From the NCBI GenBank assembly GCA_963721805.1, contig CAVRJY010000002.1, positions 320,001 to 384,000 of the forward strand: a stretch of 64,000 nt of DNA, given 5' to 3'. Positions within the stretch are counted from its first letter, which is position 1, and each line of letters begins with the position of its first letter. The translations under genes were made by a program, and so were the position numbers. This DNA comes from Nitrospirota bacterium (GTDB lineage: Bacteria; Nitrospirota; Thermodesulfovibrionia; Thermodesulfovibrionales; JdFR-86). The notes beneath the pieces were generated by a model. That model was not told the origin of the DNA and made no database searches. It saw nothing but the letters and a program-made list of their open reading frames with translations. Of this stretch, positions 5,981 through 28,184 are shown in pieces.

Positions 5981-6008
5981 TTGACAGCAAGTATTGATGA
6001 GGTATTAT
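5981..6008 (+). promoter_or_regulatory. Sigma-70 promoter TTGACA-N16-TATTAT, preceded by a DnaA-box-like TTATGCACA (5962-5970)
   Basis: Direct motif match upstream of the 6045 ORF. Confidence 0.5.
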
Positions 6009-6044
6009 TAAGTCAGATTAGAATAATTAACTAGATAAACTACT

Positions 6045-12162: not shown

Positions 12163-12234
12163 AGGCGCGTAGCTCAGTGGGAGAGCGCTACCTTGACACG
12201 GTAGAGGTCGGGGGTTCGATACCCCCCGCGCCTA
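12163..12234 (+). tRNA. trnV: tRNA-Val(GAC), CCA not encoded; contains attL of island 2
   Basis: AGGCGCG/CGCGCCT acceptor, GCTC/GAGC D-stem, CTACC-TTGACAC-GGTAG anticodon arm, GGGGG-TTCGATA-CCCCC T-arm. Confidence 0.95.
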
Positions 12235-12241
12235 TGTTTAA

Positions 12242-12277
12242 AATCAAGGGGTTAGCCATTAACGGCTAACCCTTTTT
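12242..12277 (+). terminator. Hairpin after tRNA-Val overlapping the IHF consensus AATCAAGGGGTTA and the integrase stop
   Basis: GGGTTAGCC-ATTAAC-GGCTAACCC followed by a T-run; WATCAANNNNTTR match at 12242-12254. Confidence 0.7.
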
Positions 12278-13331
12278 CATTGGGATTGTATAGTTTTTGT
12301 ATAGTAGGCCGCCCGTTCAAGGTATTGTCCAGCATATCAATAGCCTTGACCTTATGGGCCGGGGCGAGGTGGGAATAGCGGAGGGTCATGGTGAGGGTCT
12401 TATGTCCGAGCAGTTCCTTTACAGTCGTAAGGTCTACCCCGGACATAACGAGGTGTGATGCAAACGTATGCCTCAGGTCGTGAAAATGGAAGTCCTGAAT
12501 CTTTACCCGCTTTAAAGCCGTCTGAAAACTCCTCTTTACCGCCTGATAGGGTTTCCCGGTGTTAGGGTCGTAAAACACATAAGGAACGTCTAACCGCCTT
12601 GTGAGGCCCTGTAGCGTTGCACGGAGAGTGTCGGTTATCGGTATCTCCCGGCGATCCCCGTTTTTGGTTACATCCAGAAGAATAAACCCATGCCTGAGGT
12701 CTACCCTGTCCCATGTGAGCGAAAGGATTTCTCCGCGCCTCATGCCCGTGTTCAAGGCGGTAATGACTATCGGTTGAACATGAACGCTACATGCGCTTAT
12801 AAGCTCCCGGCATTCCTCTACCGATAGATACCTTAGCCGTCTGCTATCATCTCTGAGGAGCTTCACCTTGCGAATGCGCTTCAAGGTCTCGGCTTCAACC
12901 ATCTCCCAATCAACCGCCTTGGAAAACATATGCTTTAGGACATTCAAGACCTTGTTGTTGCTCGATGCTTTAAGGCCCCGGTTGATATTGTCCGTCTGCA
13001 ACTGTTCAACAAGCGATGTGCTGAATCTTCTAAGAGGCAGATTCCCATAAGCCTTAATCAGTTGGCCTATGATGTATCCCTTGATTTTGGCTGACTTCTG
13101 CCTGCCTTGAATCCATGCGTTATACTTCTCGGCAAGTTCGCCAAAAGCATGTTTTGCTATCCTCTTTTCTTCCGGTTGATTGCCGTCCTTTATACCTTGT
13201 TTTCTCTTTAAAAGCAGGGTTTCTGCGTCCCGGACTTTTGGAGAGCCTGAGGACTCATAAACCGTTTTACCATCAAGCCCGGCATAGCGTACCCAGAGGA
13301 CATTGCCGCGCTTATAAATTCCCTTTGCCAC
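12252..13331 (-). CDS. int: Tyrosine integrase
   Basis: TGMRRGE, TKNG, HDLRHTFASHL, LLGHK..MT.RY catalytic motifs; N-terminal arm-binding domain. Confidence 0.97.
   Translation of the reverse strand: MAKGIYKRGNVLWVRYAGLDGKTVYESSGSPKVRDAETLLLKRKQGIKDGNQPEEKRIAKHAFGELAEKYNAWIQGRQKSAKIKGYIIGQLIKAYGNLPLRRFSTSLVEQLQTDNINRGLKASSNNKVLNVLKHMFSKAVDWEMVEAETLKRIRKVKLLRDDSRRLRYLSVEECRELISACSVHVQPIVITALNTGMRRGEILSLTWDRVDLRHGFILLDVTKNGDRREIPITDTLRATLQGLTRRLDVPYVFYDPNTGKPYQAVKRSFQTALKRVKIQDFHFHDLRHTFASHLVMSGVDLTTVKELLGHKTLTMTLRYSHLAPAHKVKAIDMLDNTLNGRPTIQKLYNPNEKGLAVNG
12287..12305 (+). repeat. Integrase arm-type site TGTATAGTTTTTGTATAGT, left copy
   Basis: Identical 19-mer at 21760-21778. Confidence 0.8.
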
Positions 13332-13530
13332 CTTTTACCTTCCTTTCCTTTTCTTTTTCGCGTTCGATGTAGTCAAGCAAAAGACATAAAGTATCGCTCG
13401 GTGTCTTCACCCCCTTTTCAAGCATCCAGACGTAATTGCCAGTTACGCCTATCCGCGCCGCAAAATCTACTTGCGAGAGCCTAAGCCCTTTTCTTAGTGA
13501 TTTAATCTCTTCTGGCTTCCACGTTTCCAT
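13312..13530 (-). CDS. XRE-family HTH protein
   Basis: IKSLRKGLRLSQVDFAARIGVTGNYVWMLEKG. Confidence 0.9.
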   Translation of the reverse strand: METWKPEEIKSLRKGLRLSQVDFAARIGVTGNYVWMLEKGVKTPSDTLCLLLDYIEREKEKERKVKGGKGNL

Positions 13531-13640
13531 TGCCTTAGATTATACTCTAACTGAGTTAGAAAAGCAAATAGTATACAATTCACTATACAGGCCCTTGTAA
13601 CATGTTGATATTACAATTGTTTTCAGGGCTATCACTTCCT

Positions 13641-13928
13641 TTATACAGTAGTGGCCGGTATCTTGTAGCCGGACATCCATTTATCAATATCCTTACGGCT
13701 GAATCGTAACTGGCCCTTTATCTTGTAATGCGGTATCTCCTTGAATTGGACATGCTCATAAATCCACTTCTTTGAAACCTTGAGATACTCAGCAAGGCCC
13801 CGGACATCGAATATTGTATCCCCGGCCTCGTTCACGCCATTGCGGACAAGCGCGGGTCTAAGAATTTCGGCAACCCTTGAGGCTATGGCTTCAATGTCCT
13901 GAGGTTCAAGCTCAGTCTTCACATTCAC
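13641..13928 (-). CDS. Excisionase-like HTH_17 protein
   Basis: FDVRGLAEYLKVSKKWIY..IPHYKI..LRF..DIDKW. Confidence 0.85.
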   Translation of the reverse strand: MNVKTELEPQDIEAIASRVAEILRPALVRNGVNEAGDTIFDVRGLAEYLKVSKKWIYEHVQFKEIPHYKIKGQLRFSRKDIDKWMSGYKIPATTV

Positions 13929-14118
13929 TTGGATGCGTCCCCTCTTTGCTCACAAGAACACCTGCCCACGGTTTACCCGGAGGCATGGCTGTGACAGTCA
14001 CATACTTTTGTTTTTCGCCTCCATCGTAAGAGCCAAAATAGCGAGTAATCCTCAAATACATTAGCTCGCCGCCGATGTTGCCTTCAAGCGCTCTTAATCT
14101 TCTCTGTATACCCCTCAT
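13912..14118 (-). CDS. Small protein, tandem paralog 3
   Basis: Begins MRGIQRRLRALE. Confidence 0.7.
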   Translation of the reverse strand: MRGIQRRLRALEGNIGGELMYLRITRYFGSYDGGEKQKYVTVTAMPPGKPWAGVLVSKEGTHPSECED

Positions 14119-14123
14119 TTGAT

Positions 14124-14345
14124 TTAACATTTAAAGCTCTCAAACTCAGATTCGTTGACTATTTCAGTTCTGCCATTGCTGATAATAAGAAACTTCTTAA
14201 TCACCTCATTTGGTATTTCTTGATCTGTGGAATCTTCATTAACTCTGGCACCTCTACGAACTATGGTTCTTACTAAACATATTTTGTATTTCTTGATACC
14301 CGTTCGCTTCTCAAGCTCTTTTAATCGTTTTTCGATGCTTCTCAT
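14124..14345 (-). CDS. Small protein, tandem paralog 2
   Basis: Begins MRSIEKRLKELE; ATGA-coupled. Confidence 0.75.
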   Translation of the reverse strand: MRSIEKRLKELEKRTGIKKYKICLVRTIVRRGARVNEDSTDQEIPNEVIKKFLIISNGRTEIVNESEFESFKC

Positions 14346-14566
14346 TTGCTGTCACCTTTAGTATCCTGAAACTCAGTTTCACTGATTTGTTCACCCCTAC
14401 CTTTGCGGAAAACATACTCTTTCACAATATGTTCACTCACTTGCAAGGGTTGTCCTGCTGATCTTGCACCTCCACGTACGATTTCAAGCTCTAAAGTGAG
14501 CGTGTACTCCTTGCCGACACCTAAATGCTCCTCAACCTTTTTAAGCCGCTTTTGTATACCCCTCAT
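14342..14566 (-). CDS. Small protein, tandem paralog 1
   Basis: Begins MRGIQKRLKKVE; ATGA-coupled; shares IVRxGAR and GR.E..E.EF with paralog 2. Confidence 0.75.
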   Translation of the reverse strand: MRGIQKRLKKVEEHLGVGKEYTLTLELEIVRGGARSAGQPLQVSEHIVKEYVFRKGRGEQISETEFQDTKGDSK

Positions 14567-14937
14567 TTGCTTACCCCCTTTTCCAGCTTTAACAGCCGCT
14601 CCTCTATGTCCTCAAGCTCTTTCAGCTTCAAGGTGTTGTCGAGGATCAGCGCTATGGTCTTCAGCCGTATGCTCTCGTTCTCCGTCCCCCTGAGCAATTC
14701 TCCCAGCTTGAGCACGGCATCAGAGGACAGGCCCTTTAGCTCTTTCAGCGCGGTCTCTATTAGGTCGTTCTGTTGGGCGATAAACTCACGCCTGAAAAAG
14801 TCATCCTTCATCCAGTCATAGAAAAGGGTTTTGGAGATACCAGCCTGCTTAACCCCCTCGGTAATAGTCCGGGCAGAAATGATTGCCGGGATGCACTTTT
14901 TCTGCTTGGGAGTCAGGTTTTGTTCAGTTCCGTCCAT
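14563..14937 (-). CDS. HTH protein resembling a terminase small subunit N-terminus plus coiled coil
   Basis: LTPKQKK..TITEGVKQAGISKTLFYDWMKD..F; ends IEERLLKLE. Confidence 0.6.
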   Translation of the reverse strand: MDGTEQNLTPKQKKCIPAIISARTITEGVKQAGISKTLFYDWMKDDFFRREFIAQQNDLIETALKELKGLSSDAVLKLGELLRGTENESIRLKTIALILDNTLKLKELEDIEERLLKLEKGVSK

Positions 14938-15313
14938 TATTGGCCTCCATGGGGTAAGGATTCGTCATATCACATAGCTGCCGTGTATCGACAACCTTTG
15001 AGCCGGGGAATGCCGTCTTGGTCGCGTGTACGGCCCTCAGAGCCTCTTTTGACAGCCCCTTGAGCCTCTGCACCTCAGCCGCCGTATATATCGGGTCATC
15101 GATGTCACCAGACGCCATGAGCGCAACAGCCGCCCGGTCATCAGGCACATGCCATAGGTAATCATCAAACAGGGACGAGTATATCCGCCATGCGCCGCGC
15201 TCCGGTCTTGTCGACGTTGTCAATGCTTTTTGTGCTTTGTGAATATCAACAACAGGGGGAATTGCCTCTGTTGGTTTAAGTTCTCTGTTAAGGTATTTCT
15301 CTGCTAATCTCAT
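14924..15313 (-). CDS. Hypothetical protein downstream of the primase
   Basis: 129 aa, AGGAG RBS, in operon. Confidence 0.65.
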   Translation of the reverse strand: MRLAEKYLNRELKPTEAIPPVVDIHKAQKALTTSTRPERGAWRIYSSLFDDYLWHVPDDRAAVALMASGDIDDPIYTAAEVQRLKGLSKEALRAVHATKTAFPGSKVVDTRQLCDMTNPYPMEANNGRN

Positions 15314-15332
15314 TTTCTAACTCCTAAGATTT

Positions 15333-15389
15333 CATTGACAGCATTGACAACCCCCCATGCCTTAATTAGCTCTGTCAATGTTGTCAATG
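15333..15389. repeat. Iteron-like array CATTGACA x2 ... TGTCAATG x2 (candidate ori)
   Basis: 15333-15340 and 15342-15349, inverted copies at 15373-15380 and 15382-15389; a related pair at 15208-15225. Confidence 0.7.
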
Positions 15390-17786
15390 GTTTTCCTGAT
15401 TTCTGTATTGAGGATTCACAGCATATGCAGCCCCATCAAGAAGCGCGATATAGCTGCGCTCTGTAAGCACCTTCAATCCGGGGTCTACAGCATCCATTGT
15501 TTTGAGTGCGTTTTTATGCCGCATGACATCCCGGCCAGTGAAGCGCTCCGGCTTGTGGCGGTCTATGTATTCCAGAATCAGCCGGGCTGATTCAATGCGC
15601 GGGTCTTCGCCCATGAACCCGAAGACAGCAAGGGCATGAGCCGCGTAATAGCTTGCTATCGAAGTAGCCGCATGTACTGTTTCGGCCTCTATGGGTAAGG
15701 TTGCCCCGCTTTGCCCGTGAATTGCGAAATGCAAAAGCGCCGCTATCCTTGCCGCCGCACCCGGCAGTTTCGAGCCCCATTCCTTAATGCCCTCCATGTC
15801 GCCGCCCTCTTTAAGATCGGCTTCAGCGTCATGGTAAAACTCGGCCCATGCTTCAAGTGCTGATGGGGTTAAATTGAGGTCACAGTTCATAGGGGGTATG
15901 TCCATCAAATCCCAGAGGTGCGCGCGGTATCGGGCGGCTATTTCCGGTGCTATGGGGGTCGTTTGCAGCTTGCGGTGTCCGATGCGGCCCCCATTCATCG
16001 AAAACAAGAACCGTGCGAGGAGTCCGCGTCCTTTGAATTGTCTGTTCTCGCCTATCTCGCGGATTACATCACTCTGGACAGACACGCAAAGGGTTAGCGC
16101 CGGAGCCTCCATATAGCAGGCACCTCGGCTCATTCTGTGCGCGCTCCATGAGTCTCCGGCGTGGGCTTTCAGGAGTATGTCGAAGTTTGCGCCGCCCTTG
16201 CTGTAGAGCCCGGCCATGATTCCGAATATCCCGCCCTCCGCGCTGATAATACTCATGCGTTCCCCGTGGACTGTCATCGTATCGCCTAATTTCTCAGGTG
16301 TTACGTCATCCATTATGAATAGGGGGTATGGAGGGACAGGGTTATCCGTAATCTCCTTCTGTATATCGGCAATCTCTCGTATCAGTCGCTCACGGTCATT
16401 AAGCTCCTTTGCTTTAGATGCCTCTTTTTCCTTTGCCCCCAACTGAGCTTGCCGCACTTTATCTGCCGCTATTGCCTCGCAGATTACGGCCTTCATGCGC
16501 TCGGCTTTATCGTTCTGGTAATCGTATAAGGGGCGGGTCATAACGGATAACGTGGAACTCTTGCGCTCGCCGCTATCGAGGATCGGACAGACATAGATGG
16601 ATAGGGGCTCGCGGTGTGAGGCAAGCGACACCCCGGCCTTGCGTTGCATGGCTGTTGCTAGTGCCGCAAGATACACCCCTGCCGGGAATCCCGCATCTAC
16701 CTGATAGACCTCTGTGACGGCTTTAACCATTTCGCGGCCTATTCCCGGTAACACATCAACTGGAAACTGAGGAAGGTTAGTAAGGCTGTTAAGCGGAATG
16801 ATCGAAGGCCATTCAGCAGAAGCAACGTTTGCAATGTTGCTGGTTACAGCTTTTGCCGCCTTGATACAGTGCTGGACAGCTTCTATGCCCTCTAATTGGT
16901 GAAGATCATTAAAGTCGGTGGGGCCTTTCTTTTCAGCCTTAAACTTAGCAATCTCATTCTCAGACAAATTGAACTCCGGGACTGCAAGGAGCGCCCCGGC
17001 CTCTCGCGCCGCCTCAGTCGCGTTCGTAATGCCGGGGTTTCCGTCTGTCCATTGGTCATTATCGGAACAGACTATCAGACCCGATCCGGTTTCTTCTCGC
17101 GAAGTAGCTTTGTTACTGCGCCGCAGATTTCCGGCATCAAAAGCAACCACTATGGAATGCCCTGTGGCTTCATGCAGGCTTGCCCCTGTAGCGTATCCCT
17201 CGCATATCAGGATAGGGCCTGTCTTGTCTCCGGGTATCCGGCAGAAGTGTCCGACCTTAGCAGTTCCGGTTTTGAACTTCTTGCTTCCATCCCCCGAAAT
17301 GAACTGTAGGCCATGAAGCACCCCGGCGAAGTCCTGTACCGGAATAATGAGAGCGTCCCCTGATTGCTTTATTGCGAAAGGTTTAATCCCTTTGACAGTT
17401 AGATACTGATGTCTCTCATCAGCCTTCAGGCCCTTATCCCAAATTGCTTTAGACTTGGTTCTGCACTCTTCACGTCCCCGCGCCTGCTCCTCGTCGGCCT
17501 GTTTACGGATTCGCTCCATAGTGGCCTTGTATCGTGCGCGCTCTTCTACTGTCATGCTCTGGCTATCTCTTGAGCGCCACTTCTCCTTTATCTGCCGTTT
17601 GTGGCATCCAAAGGCCCCTGCGGCAAAATCTTCGGCTTCATGCAACACATACCAGCCGTTCTTCTTGTGCGGCTTATCTCCGTCTACATGGAAGCGGTGG
17701 AGCTTCCCGTTTGCTATGACTTGCTCATGTGGTTCGATTCCGGCACTTGCAAGTGCTTGTCTAAATTTATCGGTGCTGGTATCCAC
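15384..17786 (-). CDS. Toprim primase fused to a DUF3987/YfjI-like helicase domain
   Basis: ICEGYATG, AFDAGNL, SDND, TDFND (Toprim); SGERKSS, DVTPEKL, GLLARFL (DUF3987); GTG17786 with GGAGG RBS. Confidence 0.85.
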   Translation of the reverse strand: MDTSTDKFRQALASAGIEPHEQVIANGKLHRFHVDGDKPHKKNGWYVLHEAEDFAAGAFGCHKRQIKEKWRSRDSQSMTVEERARYKATMERIRKQADEEQARGREECRTKSKAIWDKGLKADERHQYLTVKGIKPFAIKQSGDALIIPVQDFAGVLHGLQFISGDGSKKFKTGTAKVGHFCRIPGDKTGPILICEGYATGASLHEATGHSIVVAFDAGNLRRSNKATSREETGSGLIVCSDNDQWTDGNPGITNATEAAREAGALLAVPEFNLSENEIAKFKAEKKGPTDFNDLHQLEGIEAVQHCIKAAKAVTSNIANVASAEWPSIIPLNSLTNLPQFPVDVLPGIGREMVKAVTEVYQVDAGFPAGVYLAALATAMQRKAGVSLASHREPLSIYVCPILDSGERKSSTLSVMTRPLYDYQNDKAERMKAVICEAIAADKVRQAQLGAKEKEASKAKELNDRERLIREIADIQKEITDNPVPPYPLFIMDDVTPEKLGDTMTVHGERMSIISAEGGIFGIMAGLYSKGGANFDILLKAHAGDSWSAHRMSRGACYMEAPALTLCVSVQSDVIREIGENRQFKGRGLLARFLFSMNGGRIGHRKLQTTPIAPEIAARYRAHLWDLMDIPPMNCDLNLTPSALEAWAEFYHDAEADLKEGGDMEGIKEWGSKLPGAAARIAALLHFAIHGQSGATLPIEAETVHAATSIASYYAAHALAVFGFMGEDPRIESARLILEYIDRHKPERFTGRDVMRHKNALKTMDAVDPGLKVLTERSYIALLDGAAYAVNPQYRNQENH

Positions 17787-17891
17787 GTTATACCCCCTCC
17801 AGCTTGAATACTCTGAAGAGAACGTGAACAATTGATTCTGGCAGCAACCCCCAACAAGCGAGGCCGACAATGATAACCTTCAATGTTGCTC

Positions 17892-18137
17892 TCAACCCTT
17901 AACCCTCTCGCGGGCAATACCGACCGCACTTCTTAGTGATTCAAAAGCCATAAGGTACGACTGAACGGGGACATGGGCATTTGCAAAGAAGCTTTCCATT
18001 GCTGCATTTAGCCCGCCCCCGGAAAGCTCAATCTTAATTGTTCCCCCATCGGATACAGCGCGGAAACTAAACCCCATTGCTATTAGGAATGCTGCCAGTT
18101 GGTTACTTGTGGTAAGTACACTCTCGGCCTTCTTCAC
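17892..18137 (-). CDS. Small DUF5659-like protein, first gene of the leftward operon
   Basis: GTG18137 with AAAGGAGG RBS; TTSNQLAAFLIAMGF motif. Confidence 0.7.
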   Translation of the reverse strand: MKKAESVLTTSNQLAAFLIAMGFSFRAVSDGGTIKIELSGGGLNAAMESFFANAHVPVQSYLMAFESLRSAVGIARERVKG

Positions 18138-18168
18138 GGGGCCTCCTTTCTTTTCTTGCCCCATGAAA

Positions 18169-18184
18169 TGCAATGCTTGTGCCA
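18169..18184 (-). promoter_or_regulatory. Sigma-54 (-24/-12) promoter TGGCACAAGCATTGCA
   Basis: Exact match to TGGCAC-N5-TTGCW, 31 bp upstream of GTG18137. Confidence 0.9.
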
Positions 18185-18200
18185 GATTTGAGCCGTGAGT

Positions 18201-18213
18201 TAACCTATTGATA
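18201..18213 (-). promoter_or_regulatory. IHF site TATCAATAGGTTA
   Basis: Exact WATCAANNNNTTR match immediately upstream of the -24 box. Confidence 0.75.
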
Positions 18214-18246
18214 ACAAAGCAAAACAAGTGATTTGAATACCCTTGT

Positions 18247-18275
18247 TTGACATGCAAATCAATATTAATTATCAT
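18247..18275 (+). promoter_or_regulatory. Sigma-70 promoter TTGACA-N17-TATCAT for the bEBP gene
   Basis: Direct motif match; AAGGAG RBS before ATG18322. Confidence 0.75.
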
Positions 18276-18321
18276 AAGTAATAATCAAAACTGAAACTGA
18301 ACAAGAAAAGGAGCCGCTCAA

Positions 18322-19722
18322 ATGTCTGACTTGCCCACCATTCTTAAAATGATGGAGCATCGTCCTACCCCAAACCCTAATGATTTCAACGACCCGGAAA
18401 TATGGAAGAGTGTGTGGGCTGAGCATTTAAGTGAAGAATCAGCGACAAGAAGGTTTAATGAACTCACTGCCGGTCTAAATGCCTACAGGGGCACTATTCC
18501 TGCTGATGACATTGATGGTAGTTTTACTTCCTATTTTATGCGTGCCAGCCAAGAGTTAGATAGGGAAACCAATTGGGACAACTTTAAGAAATTTAAGTTT
18601 AAAAAAAGAACCACCTCGATTGCCAACGCGGCACTTCTAATAGAGGGCATACATGATTTGGTCTTGATTGGGTTATTAGAGAATGCGCGCCACTATGAAA
18701 GTCTGAGGTATATAGCAGCGCATTATAATCCATTTGTTAATGACATACAGCTTAAAGCGGAATTAAACGCCCCTCTGCTAATCACAGGGAATTCAGGTAC
18801 AGGAAAAGAAGCTATGGCATATTGCATCCATATGATAAGTGGTAGGCGTAAGGAGCCATTCAAAAGCATCGACTGTTCAGCATTTTCAGGTGATTTAATA
18901 GCCTCGGAATTATTCGGCACAGTAAAAGGGGCCTTTACTGGTGCAATAGATAAACCCGGACTTCTTGAGTCAGCGAATGGCGGGACAGTATTTCTTGACG
19001 AAATAGCAAATATGCCAAAGCCTCAACAGGCCATGTTACTAAGGGTTATTGAATCTGGGAAGCTTAGGCGTGTTGGGGCGAATGAGGACATAAAGAAGAA
19101 GCTTGACGTTAGATACATTGCGGCAGTACAGCCGAGCAAAGAAAACGAGTTGCTGCCTGATTTGCTTTATAGATTGACCTATCCGTTTTGTATAAGGCTT
19201 CCATCGCTGAAGGAACGGTTTGCAGCATTAGATGACGACCAACAAAAAAGGATAATTAATCATTCATTAAAGCGTCTGACAAGGAGAGAATCGAGCATCC
19301 CATCCGAGGTTGCTTTTACTGTGTCTGCAATTAACCGACTTGTTGCACACGACTATCCCGGCAACTATCGAGAGCTTGAAAACACATTGCTCATAGCAAT
19401 AATAAACGCTCAGAATAAACATAGCTATAACGCTAAGAAACAGTTACGCATTGACACAGAACACCTTCCTACTATAGCGCAACACACAACAGCTAACCCG
19501 GCAGAAAACCTGATAGATATTAGCTCTTGGTCGCTTATGGATTTGGCCATCCCTGATAAAAAGCTCGCCCCGTTCCTCGCGGAGCGAGTTATGGGAATAT
19601 ATAAGGACGGCAGTACTCCAAGCTATGAGCTTTCAAAAGAGGGGGGCAATGATGCGAAATTCGGACGGCACTTTGAGAAAATGGTAGGGGTAAGCCTAAC
19701 GGAATTTAAACGCAACATGTAG
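18322..19722 (+). CDS. Sigma-54 enhancer-binding AAA+ activator (bEBP) with unrecognised N-terminal domain
   Basis: GNSGTGKE, SELFG..KGAFTGA, VFLDEI, LLRVIE, DLLYRL, YPGNYRELEN. Confidence 0.92.
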   Translation: MSDLPTILKMMEHRPTPNPNDFNDPEIWKSVWAEHLSEESATRRFNELTAGLNAYRGTIPADDIDGSFTSYFMRASQELDRETNWDNFKKFKFKKRTTSIANAALLIEGIHDLVLIGLLENARHYESLRYIAAHYNPFVNDIQLKAELNAPLLITGNSGTGKEAMAYCIHMISGRRKEPFKSIDCSAFSGDLIASELFGTVKGAFTGAIDKPGLLESANGGTVFLDEIANMPKPQQAMLLRVIESGKLRRVGANEDIKKKLDVRYIAAVQPSKENELLPDLLYRLTYPFCIRLPSLKERFAALDDDQQKRIINHSLKRLTRRESSIPSEVAFTVSAINRLVAHDYPGNYRELENTLLIAIINAQNKHSYNAKKQLRIDTEHLPTIAQHTTANPAENLIDISSWSLMDLAIPDKKLAPFLAERVMGIYKDGSTPSYELSKEGGNDAKFGRHFEKMVGVSLTEFKRNM

Positions 19723-19734
19723 AGTACGGTTAAA

Positions 19735-20097
19735 CTATTCTGGGCAGTCGTATGGTTCAAACGATCCTTCTTTGAGTTCGCCGGTTAGGTTCTCGATCAG
19801 ATACACTTTGGGTTTCTTATCTTGACCTACAGCTATGAATCCTCGGCAAAAGAAACTGCAAGGTAAATCGGTAGAAAAGCATATTTCTTTTTGTTTCGCC
19901 TGCAACAATTCAATTGGCCATTTATGACAATCATACTTGCCATATTTAGGGCAAATAAGCACTTCAAATTCGCCGCCGTAAATAATAGTTTTCCCCTCCA
20001 TTTTCCCTATCGCATCAAACAGCGAAGCAGCATAGGCATCATTAAATGTAATGGCTATCTGTAGTACGATTATGAATAAAAGAGTTTTTGCCATCAT
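19735..20097 (-). CDS. Secreted Cys-rich hypothetical protein
   Basis: Signal peptide ending AYA-A; six Cys. Confidence 0.65.
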   Translation of the reverse strand: MMAKTLLFIIVLQIAITFNDAYAASLFDAIGKMEGKTIIYGGEFEVLICPKYGKYDCHKWPIELLQAKQKEICFSTDLPCSFFCRGFIAVGQDKKPKVYLIENLTGELKEGSFEPYDCPE

Positions 20098-20102
20098 CGA
20101 TT

Positions 20103-20717
20103 CTATTTGCCGACTGGCTCTCCCTTTACACGCCTTACCACATCACCATTTTGGGTAACATGCTCATAATCACTCTCCTTTAATTCTTTTCCAAGAAAAG
20201 GGATTGCACCGGCTACCAGATAAGGGAAAACGTCTCGCATTGAATCCCCAAATTGTTCATCGCTTCTAATGACAGTTTTCCATAATTCGCCTTCTTGTTT
20301 CTCAAGGTAGGTTTTTCTGTCAAAGGCATCAAATGATACATAATACAGCCCCGCGTTTATTCCCGTGACGCTCATGCTCTCAGTATTTCCAGCCGCTTTA
20401 TCTGTAACTGGGATTGTTACATTGCGTGTTTCAGCAGAATACGATAAAACGCTTCCATACGAAACGAGAATTAATATGTCGGCTTTATCTGGATTCGCGG
20501 CTGGTTCAAATCCGGCGAGTTTAAGCCCTCTATCTAAATATGCTCTGTACTCCTTAAACTCTAGCGACGATTCTTTCACCCATGGCTGCGCCGGGCGAAG
20601 CTCATACTTCTTCATAGAATCGTCGGCCATCATCGCATCGATCTTAACACTATAATGCGATGGGCAACCAGCGAGAGCTATCACTATAAGCAGTCCTAAC
20701 ACTATCTTCTTTATCAT
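20103..20717 (-). CDS. Lipoprotein (DUF4136-like)
   Basis: MIKK..LAGC lipobox; GAGGGGAG RBS. Confidence 0.7.
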   Translation of the reverse strand: MIKKIVLGLLIVIALAGCPSHYSVKIDAMMADDSMKKYELRPAQPWVKESSLEFKEYRAYLDRGLKLAGFEPAANPDKADILILVSYGSVLSYSAETRNVTIPVTDKAAGNTESMSVTGINAGLYYVSFDAFDRKTYLEKQEGELWKTVIRSDEQFGDSMRDVFPYLVAGAIPFLGKELKESDYEHVTQNGDVVRRVKGEPVGK

Positions 20718-20863
20718 CCTCTCCCCCTCAATAAAGTTGTATTGCAATAGCTTAGCCCCCAACTGATCTAAAGTCAATATAACAACAAGGAAACTTCGTG
20801 ACATTTACCTTAAAACTCTTTATACTTCAAGTTATCAATAGAATCTCAAACGGGGGTAGCCAT

Positions 20864-21169
20864 ATGAAAAGAATAATGCTCTGTCTCGTTATACTCTGTG
20901 CGTTTAGCGGTATCGCTCTTGCCGGGGATGTCAACGTGAACGGCTACTGGCGGGATTCAAACCACGATGGGGTTAAGGATACCTATGTCAGCCCCTATAC
21001 ACGCACCGCGCCTGATGATAGCCGCCTGAATAACTATAGCACTCAAGGGAATACCAACCCTTACACCGGACGGCAGGGAACCGAAAGCCCATACAGCAAT
21101 CCCAGCACCCCGCTTGGCGGCTCGAACTATGGGAGTGGCAGCAATGGAAAATCGCTCTTAGGACAGTAA
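20864..21169 (+). CDS. Small secreted protein (VxGYxR..GT.V.PY.RTAPD..NNYST.GN.NPYTG type)
   Basis: Signal peptide ending ALA-G; recurrent accessory-gene motif. Confidence 0.75.
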   Translation: MKRIMLCLVILCAFSGIALAGDVNVNGYWRDSNHDGVKDTYVSPYTRTAPDDSRLNNYSTQGNTNPYTGRQGTESPYSNPSTPLGGSNYGSGSNGKSLLGQ

Positions 21170-21207
21170 GCGCTGGGGCATCGTGTGGCGTGGAAAGAAA
21201 TCAACGA

Positions 21208-21678
21208 ATGAAAACATTAAGCCTTAAAACTAAAAAAGTGATAGCCCGCGAAGGATTGATACTTTTGGGCATTTTGATACTGATTGCGGCAGCGATAAGC
21301 TTCGAATTGATTAACGCAGCCTATTACAAGCATATGACATCAATATTTATAGCCGAGCGTGGCCCATGGAAGGATTACGCTCCTACTAATCCGGATATTG
21401 TCCCGACTTCTGTTCTTCCTGATGAGGTTGTAGCAAAAGAGAGGCGTAGGCTAATTAATGCAGGATTCACACCACAAGAAATAGCTCAATACCAGAGGGT
21501 AGAGCCACCTTCTATATTTAAAACTGGAATAAATCCTCAGGATACCAAAGTAGCGAAGTTTTTTATAATAGCTGCGTATTGCTTATATTTATTTGTCAGA
21601 ATATTTATTGTGGCAATTGGCTACTCCATTAAGTTTACCAAGTGGGCTCGCGCAATCCTCAAACAACAGGAGCCATAA
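21208..21678 (+). CDS. Two-TM membrane protein
   Basis: Two hydrophobic helices flanking a soluble loop; start uncertain (21190 or 21208). Confidence 0.65.
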   Translation: MKTLSLKTKKVIAREGLILLGILILIAAAISFELINAAYYKHMTSIFIAERGPWKDYAPTNPDIVPTSVLPDEVVAKERRRLINAGFTPQEIAQYQRVEPPSIFKTGINPQDTKVAKFFIIAAYCLYLFVRIFIVAIGYSIKFTKWARAILKQQEP

Positions 21679-21759
21679 AATCATTTCCACTTATCTATTC
21701 ACTTCGCATCCTCTATTGTCTGCCATTGCATATTCTCAGGCTAATCAGGGCAGCGTCAC

Positions 21760-21778
21760 TGTATAGTTTTTGTATAGT
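21760..21778 (+). repeat. Integrase arm-type site, right copy
   Basis: Identical to 12287-12305. Confidence 0.8.
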
Positions 21779-21897
21779 GAATGCTCGGTACGATAGGGCA
21801 CAATAGGGGAAAGCCGAAGGGCTTCCCCTGATGCAAAGGGCACGATTTAGCACGAAAAAGCACGATCTGCTAAACCCGGAGAGCAATAGGCATTGCA

Positions 21898-21942
21898 TTG
21901 ACACGGTAGAGGTCAGGGGTTCGATACCCCTCGCGCCTACCA
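21898..21942 (+). pseudogene. attR: displaced 3' half of tRNA-Val ending in ACCA
   Basis: TTGACACGGTAGAGGTCAGGGGTTCGATACCCCTCGCGCCTACCA; no 5' half. Confidence 0.92.
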
Positions 21943-21950
21943 TTAAAAAC

Positions 21951-21983
21951 AAGGGGCTGGCCATTTATGGCTGGCCCCTTATT
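21951..21983 (+). terminator. Hairpin terminator after attR
   Basis: AAGGGGCTGGCCAT-TT-ATGGCTGGCCCCTT-ATT with two G-U pairs. Confidence 0.65.
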
Positions 21984-22130
21984 CTTGCGGATTCAGCAGG
22001 CGGGTAAGCTGTGTTGGGAACAATGGCATAATAACCTTGACTTACAAAGTCCTACCAATTACTCTAACAGGCATAGAGCTAGTTTTTCGGGCTTGCGCGA
22101 AATCCCTTAAAAGGTCGATACCGGAATTAT

Positions 22131-24221: not shown

Positions 24222-27200
24222 ATGAAACACACAGGAATCAAAGGAAGCCGAGGAATCCTTTATCTCATCGGGGGGCTATTGGTAATCTGTTGCGCGGTCA
24301 TGGCCGGTCCGGCGCCCGCAATGGCACAAAATGTGCTCACAGGCATCTTCGAGCTCGACGGCAACTCCTATGACGACCCGGCGGTTGCCGGCGAGGACTT
24401 CGACACGATCTGGAACGCGTATAACGGCACGGGGACGACGGATGCCCTGAAGTACGTCTTCATCCCGGACTTTAACACGCCTGACTCAAGCTATTTCGCC
24501 TCGGGGCCCAAGGACACCGACCTGATCAACCCGGTCGCTCCGGCCACGGGGACCCCGCTGCAGTGCGTAACCATAAATAACCCGCTCAACAAAGACGACG
24601 TACTGAGCGCCTATGCGGCCGCATATACAAACACGGGCGGCGACGAGATGGTCGCCTTCGGGGCCGACCGGGGAACGAATAATGGCGACGCCAATTTCGG
24701 GTTCTGGTTTTTCCAGCGGCCCATATCTTGCGACTCATCGGTCAATAACGGCTACTTTAACGGCCACAAGACGGGCGGAGACCTCTTCATCGTAAGCACC
24801 TTCACCCAGGGCGGAGGCGTCTCGACGGTCAGCGTCTATGAATGGACCGACCCCGACGGCATCGCAGAAAACGGGGACGAATGCCTCGCTGACGGGGTCG
24901 ACTGCACGGCGGCCCATAACGGGGTTCCGCTCATCACTGGCAACGACTGCGTGCAATCGGTCGAGACGAGCCAGTACATCTGCGCCACGGTCAATTCACA
25001 GGTTATACAGACCGCATGGCGGCCGAACGTCCTGACCAACATCTTCTACGAAGGGGGGGTGAACCTCACACACCTGATCGGCAATCTGGGATGCTACGCC
25101 TCGTTCATGTCCGAGACGCGCTCTTCGCAGTCCCTGACCGCTACGATCAAGGATTATGCGCTGGGCAAGCTCAGCACGTGCGGCAGCATAACGGCGGTGA
25201 AGACGACGGTCCCTTCCGGTTCGACGCAGGCATTTAACTTCTCCCTGAACCCGGACCCGTATTCCGCTGGCACCCAGTCCCTCTCCGATACACAGCAGTA
25301 CACCTGGGATTCGCTCAAGAAAGGGACATATACCCTTAGTGAGGCTGCGGCTACCGGCTGGGACCTGACCGCTATAGATTGCGGCGACAAGGTTGCCACG
25401 ACCGACCTGACCGCGGGGACCGCGGCCCTGGACCTCGCTCCGAACGAAGACATCGTCTGTACCTTCACCAATACGAAGCGCGGCCAGATCATTATCGAGA
25501 AGAAGACCGTGGGCGCGGACGGAGACTTCGACTTCACAAGCGCAAAGCTCGGAGACTTCAACCTCTCGACGAACAGCAACGATGCGACGCGGACCTTCGG
25601 CAACCTCCTGCCCGGCTCATACGCGGTTGCTGAAAGCGTTCCGGCAGGGTGGGACCTCGCCAACGCGACATGCAGCGACGGCGACGACCCCGGCTCGATT
25701 ACCCTCGTAGCCGGGCAATCCGTCACCTGCACCTTTACGAACGTCAAGAAGCCGCAGATAACCATTACACCGTCCGCGTACAACGAGGTGGGCACTTCGC
25801 ACACCTTCACCGTGACGGTATCGCAGGGGGCAAACGGCCTATCCGGCATCAAGCCGGCCGTCGCCTTCAGCCCTTCGAACCCCGGCTCGGTGACCGACAA
25901 CTGCGCCTCCACCGGCACCAACTCGAGCGGGCAGTGCACCGTCCTGATCAACAGCACGACGGCGGGGACGTTCAGCGCCTCTGCCTCGGCCTCGTTCAGC
26001 ATCAGCGGCGTCAGCTATAGTATCTCCACTAACGGCACCGGCTCCAACAGCGGCCCTGCGGTGAAGACATACGTGGACGGCGGCATCGCGCTGAGCCCGC
26101 TAACGGCCACGAACGCCGTGGGCCGCGTCCATACGATCACCGCTGAGACGTTCATCAACAACGGCACGACCGCTGAAACGCCGGCGGCCGGTGTCACGGT
26201 GAACTTCAGCCTCTCGAACAACACGGCGGGTGCGACCTTTACCGGCAACAACTACTGCGTCTCTAACGCCACCGGCTATTGCTCGGTACAGATCACCTCT
26301 TCTAACCCCGGCACCGTGACGATCAACGCATCCACGACATTAAACGTAGGAGGCGTTACGTTTACCCGCGCGACCAACGGGAATGCCGGGCCCAACGGCA
26401 CCGGGCCGGCAGTGAAGAATTACGTCAATGCGCGTATCAGCATCGGCAACACGGCCACGAACCTGGCGGGCACTCAGCATACCTTCACCGTTACGGTTGA
26501 GGAGGATAACGGCAGCGGGTTTGCGGGCCTCTCCGGCGTTAACCCGGCCGTCGCCTTCAGCCCAACCAACCCGGGCTCGGTGACCGACAACTGCGCCGCG
26601 ACCGGCACGAATTCAAGCGGTCAGTGCACGGTCGTGATAAACAATACGCTGGCCGGGACGTTTTCGGCCTCCGCCTCGCTGACAATCAGCGGCATTAACC
26701 TCACGATCTCCACCAACGGCATCGCGCCCAACAGCGGTCCGGCGGTGAAGACATACGTGGACGGCGGCATAGCGCTCAGCCCGCTTACGGCCACGGACCC
26801 TGTTGGACATGCACATACGATCACGGCCGAGGTCTATGCTGACAACGGCACGACGGTTGAAACGCCGGCGGCTGGCGTCACCGTGACCTTCAGCCTCTCC
26901 AGCAACACTGCTGGCGCCAGCTTTGTCGGCGGCAACAACACCTGCATATCCAACACCAGCGGGTTTTGCTCGGTACAGATCAACTCCACGGCCCCCGGCG
27001 GCGTTGTGATCAACGCCTCGGCGACGCTTACCGTAGGCGGCGTCACGTTCACGCGTGCGACCAACGGCAACGCCGGGCCTAACGGCACCGGACCGGCCTC
27101 GAAGACCTACGTTGCGGGCCAGATCGTCATCCAGAAGGTGACCAACCCGTCCGGCGACCCTCAGCTCTTCACCTTCACGCCGAGCTACGGGAGCCAGTTC

Positions 27201-28184
27201 ACCCTGACGGGCGGAACTTCCGCCAACAGCGGCTATATCGCACCCGGAACCTACTCGGTCAGCGAAACCGCGGTTACGGGCTGGGACCTGACGGGCGCGA
27301 CCTGCGACAACGGAAACAGTCCGGCGTCGATCACCGTCAGCTCGGGCAGCGTCATTACGTGCACCTTCACCAATACCAAGCGCGGTACGGTGAGCGTGAC
27401 CAAAACCCTGTCGGGGACGACGCCCGGTCAGGGGTTCACCTTCGAGATCAGGACCGGGGCGTCTGTTTCATCGCTGGGGACGATACTCGTCTCTGACGTG
27501 ACCGACGCAAGCGGGCTTGCGGATTTCGGCGGCACGCTGTTCGTTCCCGGGACGTATCAGTTCTGTGAAGACAACATGGCGGCCGGCTTCCACTCGTCCC
27601 TCTCGGACGACACCTCGTCGTTCGTACCTGGCGGCACGGACAATAGCGCGGTATGCGTGAACTTCACCCTTGACCCAGGAGAGGCCCAGACCTTTACGGT
27701 CAACGACACGCCGCCTCCTGGCGGGGACGCCCGCACTATCGGATACTGGAAGAACTGGGGCTCGTGCAGCAGCGGAGGGAAGCGCACGACGCTTGACGGC
27801 ACGCTGAGCGGCTTCCCGATCGCGGCCGGACAGACCACGAACGGGGTCTTCGTCGGCAAGCTCTACGTCGATACGTGCCTGGAAGCCGTCGACATCCTGG
27901 CCAAGTCCACCGTGACTTCGCCGCCCAAGAACATGGCCTCGGACGCCGCCTACAACCTCGCAGCACAGCTGCTTGCGGCGGACCTGAACATCCAGGCCGG
28001 GGCGGGCTCGTGCGCTGCCGCGACATCCGCGATCACTCAGGGGCAGGCGCTTCTGACGAGCATCAACTTCAGGGGCACGACGGGTTACCTGCCCGCGAAG
28101 GCGAAGAACAAGGCCGTGCGGAACCATGCGCTGTCGCTTGCAAACACGCTGGATCTGTATAACAACAACGAGCTCTGCCAGTAA
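24222..28184 (+). CDS. Large secreted/surface protein with repeated Ig-like (SpaA/prealbumin-like and Big-like) domains
   Basis: Signal peptide ending AMA-Q; T/S/G/N-rich; repeated GWDL..C..CTFTN.K units; internal duplication. Confidence 0.85.
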   Translation: MKHTGIKGSRGILYLIGGLLVICCAVMAGPAPAMAQNVLTGIFELDGNSYDDPAVAGEDFDTIWNAYNGTGTTDALKYVFIPDFNTPDSSYFASGPKDTDLINPVAPATGTPLQCVTINNPLNKDDVLSAYAAAYTNTGGDEMVAFGADRGTNNGDANFGFWFFQRPISCDSSVNNGYFNGHKTGGDLFIVSTFTQGGGVSTVSVYEWTDPDGIAENGDECLADGVDCTAAHNGVPLITGNDCVQSVETSQYICATVNSQVIQTAWRPNVLTNIFYEGGVNLTHLIGNLGCYASFMSETRSSQSLTATIKDYALGKLSTCGSITAVKTTVPSGSTQAFNFSLNPDPYSAGTQSLSDTQQYTWDSLKKGTYTLSEAAATGWDLTAIDCGDKVATTDLTAGTAALDLAPNEDIVCTFTNTKRGQIIIEKKTVGADGDFDFTSAKLGDFNLSTNSNDATRTFGNLLPGSYAVAESVPAGWDLANATCSDGDDPGSITLVAGQSVTCTFTNVKKPQITITPSAYNEVGTSHTFTVTVSQGANGLSGIKPAVAFSPSNPGSVTDNCASTGTNSSGQCTVLINSTTAGTFSASASASFSISGVSYSISTNGTGSNSGPAVKTYVDGGIALSPLTATNAVGRVHTITAETFINNGTTAETPAAGVTVNFSLSNNTAGATFTGNNYCVSNATGYCSVQITSSNPGTVTINASTTLNVGGVTFTRATNGNAGPNGTGPAVKNYVNARISIGNTATNLAGTQHTFTVTVEEDNGSGFAGLSGVNPAVAFSPTNPGSVTDNCAATGTNSSGQCTVVINNTLAGTFSASASLTISGINLTISTNGIAPNSGPAVKTYVDGGIALSPLTATDPVGHAHTITAEVYADNGTTVETPAAGVTVTFSLSSNTAGASFVGGNNTCISNTSGFCSVQINSTAPGGVVINASATLTVGGVTFTRATNGNAGPNGTGPASKTYVAGQIVIQKVTNPSGDPQLFTFTPSYGSQFTLTGGTSANSGYIAPGTYSVSETAVTGWDLTGATCDNGNSPASITVSSGSVITCTFTNTKRGTVSVTKTLSGTTPGQGFTFEIRTGASVSSLGTILVSDVTDASGLADFGGTLFVPGTYQFCEDNMAAGFHSSLSDDTSSFVPGGTDNSAVCVNFTLDPGEAQTFTVNDTPPPGGDARTIGYWKNWGSCSSGGKRTTLDGTLSGFPIAAGQTTNGVFVGKLYVDTCLEAVDILAKSTVTSPPKNMASDAAYNLAAQLLAADLNIQAGAGSCAAATSAITQGQALLTSINFRGTTGYLPAKAKNKAVRNHALSLANTLDLYNNNELCQ
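25760..27112 (+). repeat. Intragenic tandem duplication of a two-domain unit (period about 685 bp; boundaries approximate)
   Basis: CCCGGCTCGGTGACCGACAACTGCGCC and GGTGAAGACATACGTGGACGGCGGCAT each occur twice. Confidence 0.8.

Follow-up and report, generated by a model that had tools for sequence, protein, structure and literature searches.

A predicted sigma-54 promoter and a divergent activator gene in the control region of a satellite-like element integrated in a tRNA-Val gene

PICI-type satellites, which include the SaPIs and the AlpA-controlled islands of Gram-negative bacteria, are switched either by an Stl repressor or by AlpA activation from sigma-70 promoters, so that the master regulator in known islands is Stl or AlpA. 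Islands are classed as PICI-like by the presence of an integrase, an excisionase or AlpA-type protein and a primase-replicase within about 7-18 kb. More generally, control of all the satellites and integrative islands known to us rests with repressors or with small sigma-70 activators. Because a sigma-54-based switch cannot fire without its ATPase, it would be essentially silent when off and all-or-none when it turns on; the bEBPs that provide this ATPase classically sense metabolites or stress. Here we describe an integrative element of 9.7 kb, inserted in a tRNA-Val gene, in whose control region a self-encoded bEBP would drive the sigma-54 promoter of an operon for replication, packaging and excision, a reading of the sequence to which we give a probability of about 0.7.

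The element lies within the window, by which we mean the whole 64-kb stretch of DNA analysed here, and is bounded at about 12235-21939 by tRNA-Val repeats (Table 1), which form part of a direct repeat (D5) that is 82% identical between 12193-12282 and 21898-21987. The local drop in G+C continues slightly past attR, ending near 24 kb. At the left end, the hairpin downstream of the integrase gene is likely to mark the end of leftward transcription, and the adjacent copies of TGTATAGT are candidate arm-type or operator sites; five copies of this sequence are found in the window, every one within the island, against 0.61 expected. The ORFs of the right arm had no match in Pfam or PADLOC, and PADLOC likewise returned nothing for the small island ORFs. 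However, the 123-aa protein of the right arm matches phrog_29674 (5.7e-10) and has a counterpart, 45% identical, in one of the related elements discussed below (L121).

Table 1. Features of the tRNA-Val element and of its control region, in window coordinates
Feature	Position	Strand	Basis or remark
tRNA-Val (GAC)	12163..12234	+	ARAGORN; left attachment repeat (attL, 12193-12234) formed by 3' half
Terminator-like hairpin 3' of the integrase gene	12249..12272	-	Consensus scan: 10-pair stem, then T-run
Tyrosine integrase	12252..13331	-	Phage_integrase 1.7e-31; phrog_1 1.6e-63
Two TGTATAGT copies, left end	12287..12305	+	Exact 19-nt repeat D13
Cro/cI-type HTH_3 protein, 72 aa; gene overlaps integrase start	13312..13530	-	HTH_3 9.8e-07
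Spacer with TGTATAGT site (13582-13589) and TTGCTT-17-TATAAT	13531..13640	-	Read from sequence
Excisionase / AlpA-type HTH_17 protein	13641..13928	-	HTH_17 1.7e-12; phrog_66, phrog_1840
Three overlapping small ORFs (72, 73, 74 aa), partly paralogous	13912..14566	-	Pairwise comparison
Small-terminase-like (TerS-like) protein, 124 aa	14563..14937	-	phrog_2538 3.7e-08 and three more TerS PHROGs; HTH_Tnp_1_2 8e-07
129-aa protein, function not assigned, kept in related elements	14924..15313	-	tblastn 38-40% identity in L027, L032, L034
Primase-helicase (Toprim + DUF3987), 828 aa	15384..17870	-	DUF3987 5.8e-89, Toprim_3 1e-10; primase and helicase PHROGs
First operon gene, 81 aa	17892..18137	-	GTG start preceded by AAGGAGG
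Sigma-54 promoter (predicted) TGGCACAAGCATTGCA	18169..18184	-	Exact consensus; conserved across family
IHF consensus TATCAATAGGTTA	18201..18213	-	Ends 16 nt upstream of TGG
Pair of interleaved 7-bp inverted repeats, candidate activator sites with weak support	18222..18261	.	Read from sequence
Sigma-70-type promoter of activator gene, TTGACA-17-TATCAT	18247..18275	+	11 of 12; island's best site
bEBP, 466 aa	18322..19722	+	Divergent from leftward operon
Right arm, four ORFs, function not assigned	19735..21678	120, 233 aa on -; 123, 162 aa on +	ORFs
Two TGTATAGT copies, right end	21760..21778	+	Repeat and motif scans
attR, displaced copy of tRNA-Val 3' half	21898..21939	+	Repeat D5

The tightly packed leftward genes follow the order given in a preliminary description of this DNA, with Pfam and PHROGs identifying in turn a small protein, a Toprim+DUF3987 primase, a TerS-like protein, three small ORFs and an HTH_17 excisionase, and then the HTH_3 protein and the integrase. 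Judged from the sequence, the first gene most likely starts at the GTG at 18137 rather than at the ATG at 18275 of the mechanical ORF, which places the -24/-12 box described below between genes. The likeness of its product to DUF5659 proteins had also been proposed, and it holds marginally: the 81-aa protein matches a profile of its DUF5659-type counterparts with E 0.0018 and 8.7 bits, and the counterparts in five elements (L117, L125, L128, L142 and L144) pass Pfam DUF5659 themselves. Similarly, two of the three supposed paralogs are related to each other (37% identical, E 5e-12), whereas the third has only an N-terminal motif in common with them; none of the three matched a family in Pfam or PHROGs. 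The 124-aa TerS-like protein is 46% identical to its counterpart in L121. Homologues of the HTH_3 protein occupy the same position in L030, L034, L041 and L120. The HTH_3 and integrase genes probably share a separate, weak sigma-70-type promoter in the spacer that precedes them, and with such a promoter for the integrase, excision would be gated via the excisionase and not via the integrase.

This gene content bears on the kind of element concerned. The integrase, excisionase and primase-replicase by which PICI-like islands are recognised all lie between the tRNA-Val repeats, 9.7 kb apart, together with a protein that matches the TerS PHROGs (3.7e-08, a weak match), and no capsid, portal or tail family was found among the 16 island ORFs scanned with Pfam and PHROGs. 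The ORFs scanned in related elements likewise had no match to these families. The regulator departs from the PICI pattern in that the divergent gene encodes a bEBP instead of an Stl-type repressor or AlpA, and the HTH_17 protein is encoded inside the operon. Comparison of the 16 island ORFs with the PHROG and Pfam libraries only gave no match to the P4-like Sid/Psu, Delta/Ogr or alpha primase proteins. TerS-like genes are present in the window element and in L041, L121, L130, L138 and L144, and L041 carries TerL in addition to TerS. Because TerS-like genes occur in six elements and no recognised structural gene occurs in any, 'satellite-like' is a reasonable term. Of the earlier label of a phage-satellite-like element, then, the part concerning gene content (integrase, excisionase, replicase, TerS-like gene, no structural genes, 9.7 kb) stands; in gene content, the element fits a PICI-like phage satellite.

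The best-surviving alternative retains the same switch but places it in an integrative self-replicating island, tycheposon-like or cryptic, whose activator would answer a host stress, nutrient or envelope signal rather than a helper phage. The sensing of such metabolite or stress cues is the classical role of bEBPs, no structural or helper-interference gene was recognised, no helper was identified, and the TerS-like gene is found in only 6 of about 17 elements in which the operon is of sufficient length. In addition, the host carries a prophage-like head and tail cluster on another contig, at about 133-147 kb of G000 contig 1, that has nothing in common with the island; a search of the host genome (94% complete) for the HK97-type capsid (PF05065) and TerL_ATPase (PF03354) families found neither. 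However, the TerS-like genes do recur and have no obvious role other than packaging, L041 with its TerS and TerL pair is filed as viral in IMG/VR, and the size and gene order of the element match those of PICI-type islands. We regard an island of this kind as a genuine, if minority, possibility.

The control region itself spans the spacer between the first operon gene and the bEBP gene. An exact -24/-12 box had been reported on the minus strand ahead of the leftward operon, and the reverse complement of 18169-18184 does read TGGCACAAGCATTGCA, an exact TGGCAC-N5-TTGCW in which GG and GC are spaced ten bases. The box lies upstream of the operon on the same strand, 32 nt from its GTG start, with a predicted transcription start near 18158. 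The reported IHF site is equally exact, the reverse complement of 18201-18213 being TATCAATAGGTTA, a perfect fit to WATCAANNNNTTR; when the 184-bp spacer was simulated with a Markov model, 2.4% of the runs contained such a site. The promoter proposed for the divergent bEBP gene was also recovered, with TTGACA at 18247-18252, a 17-nt spacer and TATCAT at 18270-18275, and is the best sigma-70-like site in the island (11 of 12). The inverted repeats fared less well. Both are present (AAACAAG/CTTGTTT at 18222-18228 and 18242-18248; TGATTTG/CAAATCA at 18229-18235 and 18255-18261), but two perfect 7-bp inverted repeats arose in 15% of the spacer simulations, so that by themselves they are no evidence, and as an enhancer they do not rise above chance. 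No other enhancer site was identified in the region, and no motif common to the elements was seen.

The divergent gene had been taken for an intact bEBP, which its sequence supports. Its sigma-54 AAA+ core (residues 136-366) matches Sigma54_activat (PF00158, 9.1e-44, residues 138-286) and AAA_lid_14 and contains Walker A GxxGxGK (156-162), GAFTGA (203-208) and Walker B DE (226-227). In line with this, the structure model (pLDDT 84) has NtrC1, FleQ, FlrC and PspF as its top Foldseek matches, at E about 1e-16. The flanking regions are less usual. Pfam finds neither the customary receiver domain nor a Fis-type domain in the protein, and HTH_8 (PF02954), the C-terminal Fis-type HTH, has no match; its place is taken by a conserved helical C-terminal domain (400-466) that belongs to no Pfam family. 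This domain weakly resembles AraC-type HTH domains (best Z 4.7), and a Foldseek search with it returned nothing at E <= 0.001. The helical N-terminal region (1-135), also unnamed, is poorly conserved, and its best Protein Atlas score was 0.85, to tiny unnamed clusters. The element's activator thereby adds a new bEBP architecture, that of an unnamed family with N- and C-terminal domains of its own and a GNYREL motif, whose C-terminal domain is common to at least 100 family representatives; a cluster look-up with ten members returned no names.

A single-protein scan of genome contigs with the activator gave 42 pattern matches, none of which was confirmed, and all the matches obtained when it was searched against 60 relatives were restricted to the AAA+ core, without recovering the element's activator. 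The phage collection likewise yielded core matches only, mostly to bacterial contigs filed as phage. In the viral-contig search, a C-terminal alignment headed by the window protein gave no confirmed match, and one headed by a typical family member did give matches.

Comparison with related elements carries the argument for the box. In 22 distinct elements with this bEBP family, the activator gene is always divergent from a small protein gene, a replicase gene and further genes, an arrangement seen in L041, in L117-L121 and in metagenome loci and holding across hosts of different phyla. In all 22, each with upstream DNA available, the operon strand carries TGGCAY, exact or slightly varied. The fuller pattern TGGYAY-N7-GC, which was fixed after the first seven elements had been seen, occurs on that strand in 17 of the 22, against a background of 20 matches among 472,522 strand-nt, which gives an expectation of 0.036 for each region; since the elements are mutually related, these counts are not independent events. 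The remaining five either retain the -24 half next to a degenerate -12 (TTGT, TTGG, GTGA) or have AGGCAT at -24. By contrast, none of 11 primase-related loci without this bEBP has the box core in the 1.5 kb that precede the primase gene, and these loci include relatives whose integrases are 47-75% identical to that of the window element. The conservation of the box in homologous elements, on which the preliminary description had staked its proposal, is thus borne out. An IHF-like site 14-18 nt from TGG is present in 7 of the 22 (shuffle mean 0.3). The layout of activator, box and operon is found, moreover, in some twenty further elements with differing replicases, and at least six types of replicase are represented among the elements that exchange this module.

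Sigma-54 is available to the element: the proposal would have fallen with a host devoid of rpoN, and the host has this gene (Sigma54_DBD 4.9e-56, in a 489-aa frame, G000:C1:829168-829638). It is also present in four of five other host genomes, the fifth, without a match, being a metagenome-assembled genome of which the completeness is not given. The host has four IHF/HU-type genes, the best scoring 117.9 bits against a himA cut-off of 120.25. It would be conceivable that the box is real but served by one of the host's own bEBPs, of which there are 12 bEBP-like matches, with the divergent bEBP regulating host or right-arm genes or mainly repressing its own promoter. Besides the lack of an identified enhancer site, this is favoured by the GAFTGA motif: among 40 family members it is intact in 22, a near variant in 11 and lost in 7, and the elements whose activators lack it (L118, L125, L128 and L150) keep the box. 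The idea that loss of GAFTGA goes with loss of the box is therefore not borne out, and the box is not strictly tied to an intact sigma-54 contact loop. Against a host activator stand the tight co-occurrence of box and bEBP family (17-22 of 22 with it, 0 of 11 without), the invariable divergence of bEBP gene and operon as neighbours in hosts of different phyla, and a relaxed scan of the island that found one other well-formed GG-N10-GC (20908, plus strand, inside the 123-aa ORF) and no second exact consensus. We consider service by a host bEBP improbable. Finally, we regard it as extremely improbable that the A+T-rich spacer matches the consensus by chance and that the operon is read from an unrecognised sigma-70 promoter, because, although the consensus with one mismatch allowed matches twice in the window where 1.79 matches are expected, the exact consensus is unique in the 64 kb, its position and strand are conserved among elements whose DNA no longer aligns, the opposite strand has the pattern in 0 of 22 elements, and a consensus scan found no sigma-70-like site on the operon strand of the spacer.

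Taken together, these data favour control of the operon by the element's own bEBP. We propose that the activator would be made from its own sigma-70 promoter, while sigma-54 holoenzyme would sit on the -24/-12 box as a closed, silent complex. A signal reaching the N-terminal region of the activator would then lead to assembly of the AAA+ ring, which would probably bind the spacer by the unnamed C-terminal helical domain, assisted by an IHF-induced bend 16 nt upstream of the box. The ring would touch sigma-54 via GAFTGA and the promoter would open, so that replication, TerS-type packaging functions and excisionase would start together. In the PICI-like reading, the bEBP would fill the place of the master regulator, and a cue from a helper phage is one possible signal. 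The earlier inference that replication and excision are gated positively by this bEBP accordingly stands in its core, given a box kept with the bEBP family and a host with rpoN, but is narrowed by an integrase gene that probably has a promoter of its own. The further suggestions that the bEBP may sense helper-phage infection and repress its own gene are conjectural.

A bolder extension of this proposal is that the elements form an undescribed, widespread class of satellites with the bEBP as master switch, the N-terminal region directly sensing a helper-phage protein or infection signal and an xYPG(F/L) loop working with sigma-54. We think this unlikely as a whole. If it were true, the hosts would be sigma-54-rich anaerobes (Nitrospirota, Desulfobacterota), the switch would be positive and near leak-proof, the fast-evolving N-terminal region would be a sensor comparable to Stl of the SaPIs but opposite in sign, and one subclade would use the xYPG(F/L) loop in place of GAFTGA. 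Should the input indeed be a phage cue, this would be a novel form of helper detection by a satellite. Independently of this, the bEBP with GNYREL and the new C-terminal domain, the -24/-12 box, the IHF site and the DUF5659-type first gene make up a recognisable module; its exchange between elements of different replicase types makes it useful for tracing such elements in anaerobes that have been little studied.

Several described systems share individual parts of this arrangement. The marine cyanobacterial tycheposons are also integrated at tRNA genes and encode a tyrosine recombinase, an excisionase and a primase-helicase, and some of them have genes for packaging and are regarded as satellites. 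Their hosts are different, however, the likeness is one of gene content and integration site, and we are not aware of any that is under sigma-54 control. Mobile elements and islands can also carry an activator along with the sigma-54 promoter that it serves, as with XylR on TOL, DmpR and HrpR/HrpS, but those activators control catabolic or secretion cargo, and here the targets would be the genes by which the element itself replicates, is packaged and excises. The comparison also points to bEBP genes of lytic-type marine phages that adjoin consensus sigma-54 promoters. Among viruses of bacteria, Mosigvirus AV110, a lytic T4-like phage, encodes Htm (Gp204), a protein with a bEBP-like structure that alters transcription; it is reported to bind ssDNA and to shift the expression of over 700 genes of the host, and the abstract names neither an integrative element nor a sigma-54 promoter carried by the phage (bioRxiv 10.64898/2026.10.06.757011). 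In the literature searched, we found no satellite or other element gated by a self-encoded bEBP and a sigma-54 promoter, which agrees with the novelty claimed for the locus beforehand.

In its layout, the control region is closest to E. coli pspF-pspA, where the bEBP gene is likewise divergent, has a sigma-70 promoter to itself and is separated from its target by a short spacer, and an IHF site lies between the sigma-70 and -24/-12 promoters, all within about 180 bp. PspF differs from the element's bEBP in that it has no N-terminal regulatory region but does have a Fis-type HTH, and its target is a host stress operon instead of a mobile element. In its gene content, the element is closest to the PICI-type satellites, with which it shares integration at a tRNA gene or conserved site, an integrase, an excisionase or AlpA-type HTH_17 protein, a primase-helicase, a small-terminase homologue, the absence of structural genes, a size near 10 kb and a master regulator gene that is divergent from the replication and packaging operon. 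It differs from them in that this divergent regulator is an AAA+ bEBP and the promoter of the operon is of the sigma-54 type.

Comparison across related elements gives good support to the earlier proposal that the leftward operon would be gated by the element's own bEBP, acting on a sigma-54 promoter. The control region contains what the preliminary description had reported there, namely an exact -24/-12 box on the minus strand, an exact IHF consensus and a TTGACA-17-TATCAT promoter for the activator gene (see table). The box is an exact TGGCAC-N5-TTGCW and is the only such occurrence in the whole 64-kb window, while the sigma-70-like site is the highest-scoring of the entire island (11/12). 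When the 184-bp spacer was simulated with a Markov model, 2.4% of runs contained an exact IHF site by chance and 15% a pair of perfect 7-bp inverted repeats, so that the two inverted repeats described previously, although both present, carry no weight by themselves. The mechanical ORF 17892-18275 covers the sigma-54 box; the true start of the operon's first gene is most likely the GTG at 18137, 4 bases past AAGGAGG, which would place the box 32 nt upstream of the gene and the predicted transcription start near 18158.

DNA around members of the activator family was then fetched by alignment of the C-terminal domain, giving five good loci from species genomes (metagenome-assembled genomes titled Syntrophaceae, Nitrospirota, Deltaproteobacteria, Magnetobacteriaceae and Nitrospirae), 39 from metagenomes and a 9.6-kb IMG/VR contig (L041). 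Once duplicates and loci without upstream DNA had been removed, 22 distinct elements remained, the window included. In every element examined, the activator gene and a leftward operon are transcribed divergently, the operon beginning with genes for a small protein and for a replicase. Conservation of the box in these homologous elements, which the preliminary description had suggested looking for, is evident: TGGYAY-N7-GC, a pattern chosen after the first seven elements had been seen, occurs within an 850-nt region (placed by distance from the C-terminal match) on the operon strand in 17 of 22 elements and on the other strand in none, these being related elements rather than independent events. 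The background in the rest of the loci, 20 matches in 472,522 strand-nt, predicts 0.036 per region, and a stricter pattern, applied ahead of any inspection of the metagenome loci, agreed with this and had no match on the other strand. The remaining five elements keep the -24 half with a weakened -12 (TTGT in L120 and L130, TTGG in L153, GTGA in L125, and ATGC with AGGCAT in L145). IHF-like sites carrying no more than one mismatch are found in seven of the 22 elements (three of them exact) with their end 14-18 nt upstream of the TGG, compared with an average of 0.3 elements in shuffles, and in five more with their end 4-5 nt upstream.

The operons behind this control region are diverse, with at least six kinds of replicase beside the activator (Toprim+DUF3987; PriCT_1+AAA_25; Prim-Pol; RepB_primase+AAA_25; DnaG zinc ribbon+AAA_25; DUF3854 with a large ORF), followed, where the contig is long enough, by HTH_17 excisionases and integrases. 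The L041 replicase, of the Toprim+DUF3987 kind, is split between two overlapping frames (frameshift or sequencing error). L117, L125, L128, L142 and L144 have a DUF5659 first gene, and a profile made from these also marks the first gene of L130, L138 and L149 as DUF5659-like; the window's own first protein, previously called DUF5659-like, is marginal against this profile. Related elements that lack this activator, with kinship seen in the integrase (47-75% identity), the excisionase, TerS and the primase, carry other divergent genes, among them, in the same phylum, a 263-aa zf-CGNR (CGNR zinc finger) protein and two unnamed proteins at the activator's place. None of the 11 primase-related loci without this activator contains the box core in the 1.5 kb that precede the primase gene, which indicates that box and activator travel jointly as one module. 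This regulator module seems, from the loci compared, to be exchangeable between elements.

The activator itself, a protein of 466 aa, has the Walker A and B motifs and GAFTGA with which it had been credited, in a Sigma54_activat core (9e-44); no receiver domain and no Fis-type HTH were detected. Its closest relatives among 5.8 billion proteins share 35-36% identity across about 72% of its length, and a profile run against 1.84 billion representatives returned well over 100 proteins of 400-520 aa that align from about profile position 70-130 through the C-terminus. The family bears a GNYREL motif, the usual bEBP version being GNVREL. In an alignment of 40 members, the core averages 47% pairwise identity, the C-terminal 67 residues 36% and the N-terminal 135 residues 19%, a value that would fit a diversifying sensor and proves nothing. 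GAFTGA is absent from seven of the 40; the activators of L118, L125, L128 and L150 are without it, and their elements still have a -24/-12-type box in the usual place. One subclade has the loop xYPG(F/L) or GAHSxA instead. The AlphaFold model of the activator (pLDDT 84) has a helical N-terminus of low confidence, a core resembling NtrC1, FleQ, FlrC and PspF, and a confident C-terminal domain of four to five helices. This domain has no Pfam family and, folded alone, no Foldseek match; the matches from a wide structural aligner were weak (Z 4.7 at best), and many were AraC-type HTH domains (Rns, ToxT, AdpA, SoxS, AraC, Rob, MarA); DNA binding by the modelled domain is plausible.

Coordinates and components of the element, and features of other loci
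Feature	Position	Strand	Remarks
Sigma-54 promoter box	18169-18184	minus	TGGCACAAGCATTGCA
IHF site	18201-18213	minus	TATCAATAGGTTA
Sigma-70-like TTGACA-17-TATCAT	18247-18275
tRNA-Val	12163-12234
Copies of tRNA-Val 3' half	12193-12234; 21898-21939		second copy, repeat D5
Leftward gene 1			81-aa protein
Leftward gene 2			828-aa Toprim+DUF3987 primase-helicase
Leftward gene 3			129-aa protein
Leftward gene 4			124-aa small-terminase-like protein (phrog_2538, 3.7e-08)
Leftward genes 5-7			three small ORFs
Leftward gene 8			HTH_17 excisionase
Leftward genes 9-10			past 110-nt gap; 72-aa HTH_3 protein, then integrase
Weak hairpin before integrase end	15189-15174	operon strand	5 pairs
Terminator-like hairpin 3' of integrase gene	12272-12249
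TGTATAGT copies	12287-12305; 13582-13589; 21760-21778		two, one and two copies
Right arm	19735-21678		four ORFs
Low-G+C stretch left of tRNA-Val	1-12000
Gene of 1320-aa protein	24222-28184
One-mismatch sigma-54-like match	24322-24337		within 5' end of 1320-aa protein gene
zf-CGNR gene at activator's place	L030 7099-7890
Unnamed genes at activator's place	L035 10770-11447; L034 10867-11583
L041 replicase frames	3756-4319; 4312-6255
Minimal bEBP genes	L089 7890-8681; L058 7791-8859
Host prophage-like cluster (L174, L175)	G000 contig 1, about 133000-147000		host genome

The repeated 3' half of tRNA-Val bounds a 9.7-kb island whose G+C is 43-53%, compared with about 62% for the host DNA on its right. 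The two copies show two mutually compensating T-stem differences (GGGGG/CCCCC versus AGGGG/CCCCT), and since their likeness runs on into the downstream hairpin, the element seems to carry its own version of the tRNA-Val end. Between the 129-aa gene and the excisionase gene, both included, successive reading frames overlap or abut, and a terminator scan of the operon strand found a single weak hairpin before the integrase end, the one 3' of the integrase gene being much stronger. The three small ORFs described as paralogs are present, two of them 37% identical to each other. In the 110-nt gap ahead of the HTH_3 gene, TTGCTT-17-TATAAT lies behind a TGTATAGT site; the integrase thus probably has a separate promoter, with the sigma-54 promoter gating replication, packaging and the excisionase. 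This octamer has five copies in the window, all within the island, versus 0.61 expected, and these copies, two per island end and one upstream of TTGCTT-17-TATAAT, could serve as arm sites for the integrase or as operators. The four right-arm ORFs have no Pfam or PADLOC match. Left of tRNA-Val, a second stretch of 40-50% G+C encodes a 948-aa TPR-CHAT protein, a PIN protein, a weak Replic_Relax match and a HerA/mad8-like ATPase, and could represent a further island or a locus for defence. Elsewhere in the window, a gene whose 1320-aa product has SpaA-type and Big_1 domains contains internal repeats, each about 685 nt long and 78-82% identical.

The host genome, whose possible lack of rpoN had been raised, encodes it, as do four of five other host genomes, the fifth being a metagenome-assembled genome with completeness not given. 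Four IHF/HU-type genes are present in the host, the top one slightly below the himA cut-off, and there are 12 bEBP matches in the host and 6-25 in its relatives.

The satellite-like label given to the element is plausible, and we put the chance that it is a phage satellite at about one in two. Its size and its integrase, excisionase and replicase set speak for this reading, as do TerS-like genes in six elements (L041 has TerS and TerL); none of the ORFs scanned across elements was recognisable as a capsid, portal or tail gene. Most elements, however, are without a recognisable packaging gene, and the host's prophage-like cluster on another contig, which has host-like G+C and encodes TerL, portal, head protease, major head protein, minor tail protein and tail chaperone, shows no similarity to island proteins.

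Many IMG/VR contigs carry a minimal bEBP of 257-280 aa that consists of the AAA+ core alone (phrog_7998, annotated ‘unknown function’; L089 and L058, also L053, L055, L066, L074-L077, L080, L085, L088 and others), with a box of TGGCAyGrwTCTTGCT-type consensus directly after the gene on the same strand. Both L089 and L058 also have genes for DNA polymerase, helicase, ligase and exonuclease as well as Sak4-type genes, and thus resemble lytic-type phages; the adjoining box suggests that phages may drive their own sigma-54 promoters.

To our knowledge, the closest likeness to the control-region layout is pspF-pspA. In agreement with the novelty proposed earlier, a search of the full-text literature, subscription-only papers aside, found no satellite or integrative element under its own bEBP. 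Htm, according to its preprint (bioRxiv 10.64898/2026.10.06.757011), is a bEBP-like protein of a lytic phage whose targets are host genes.
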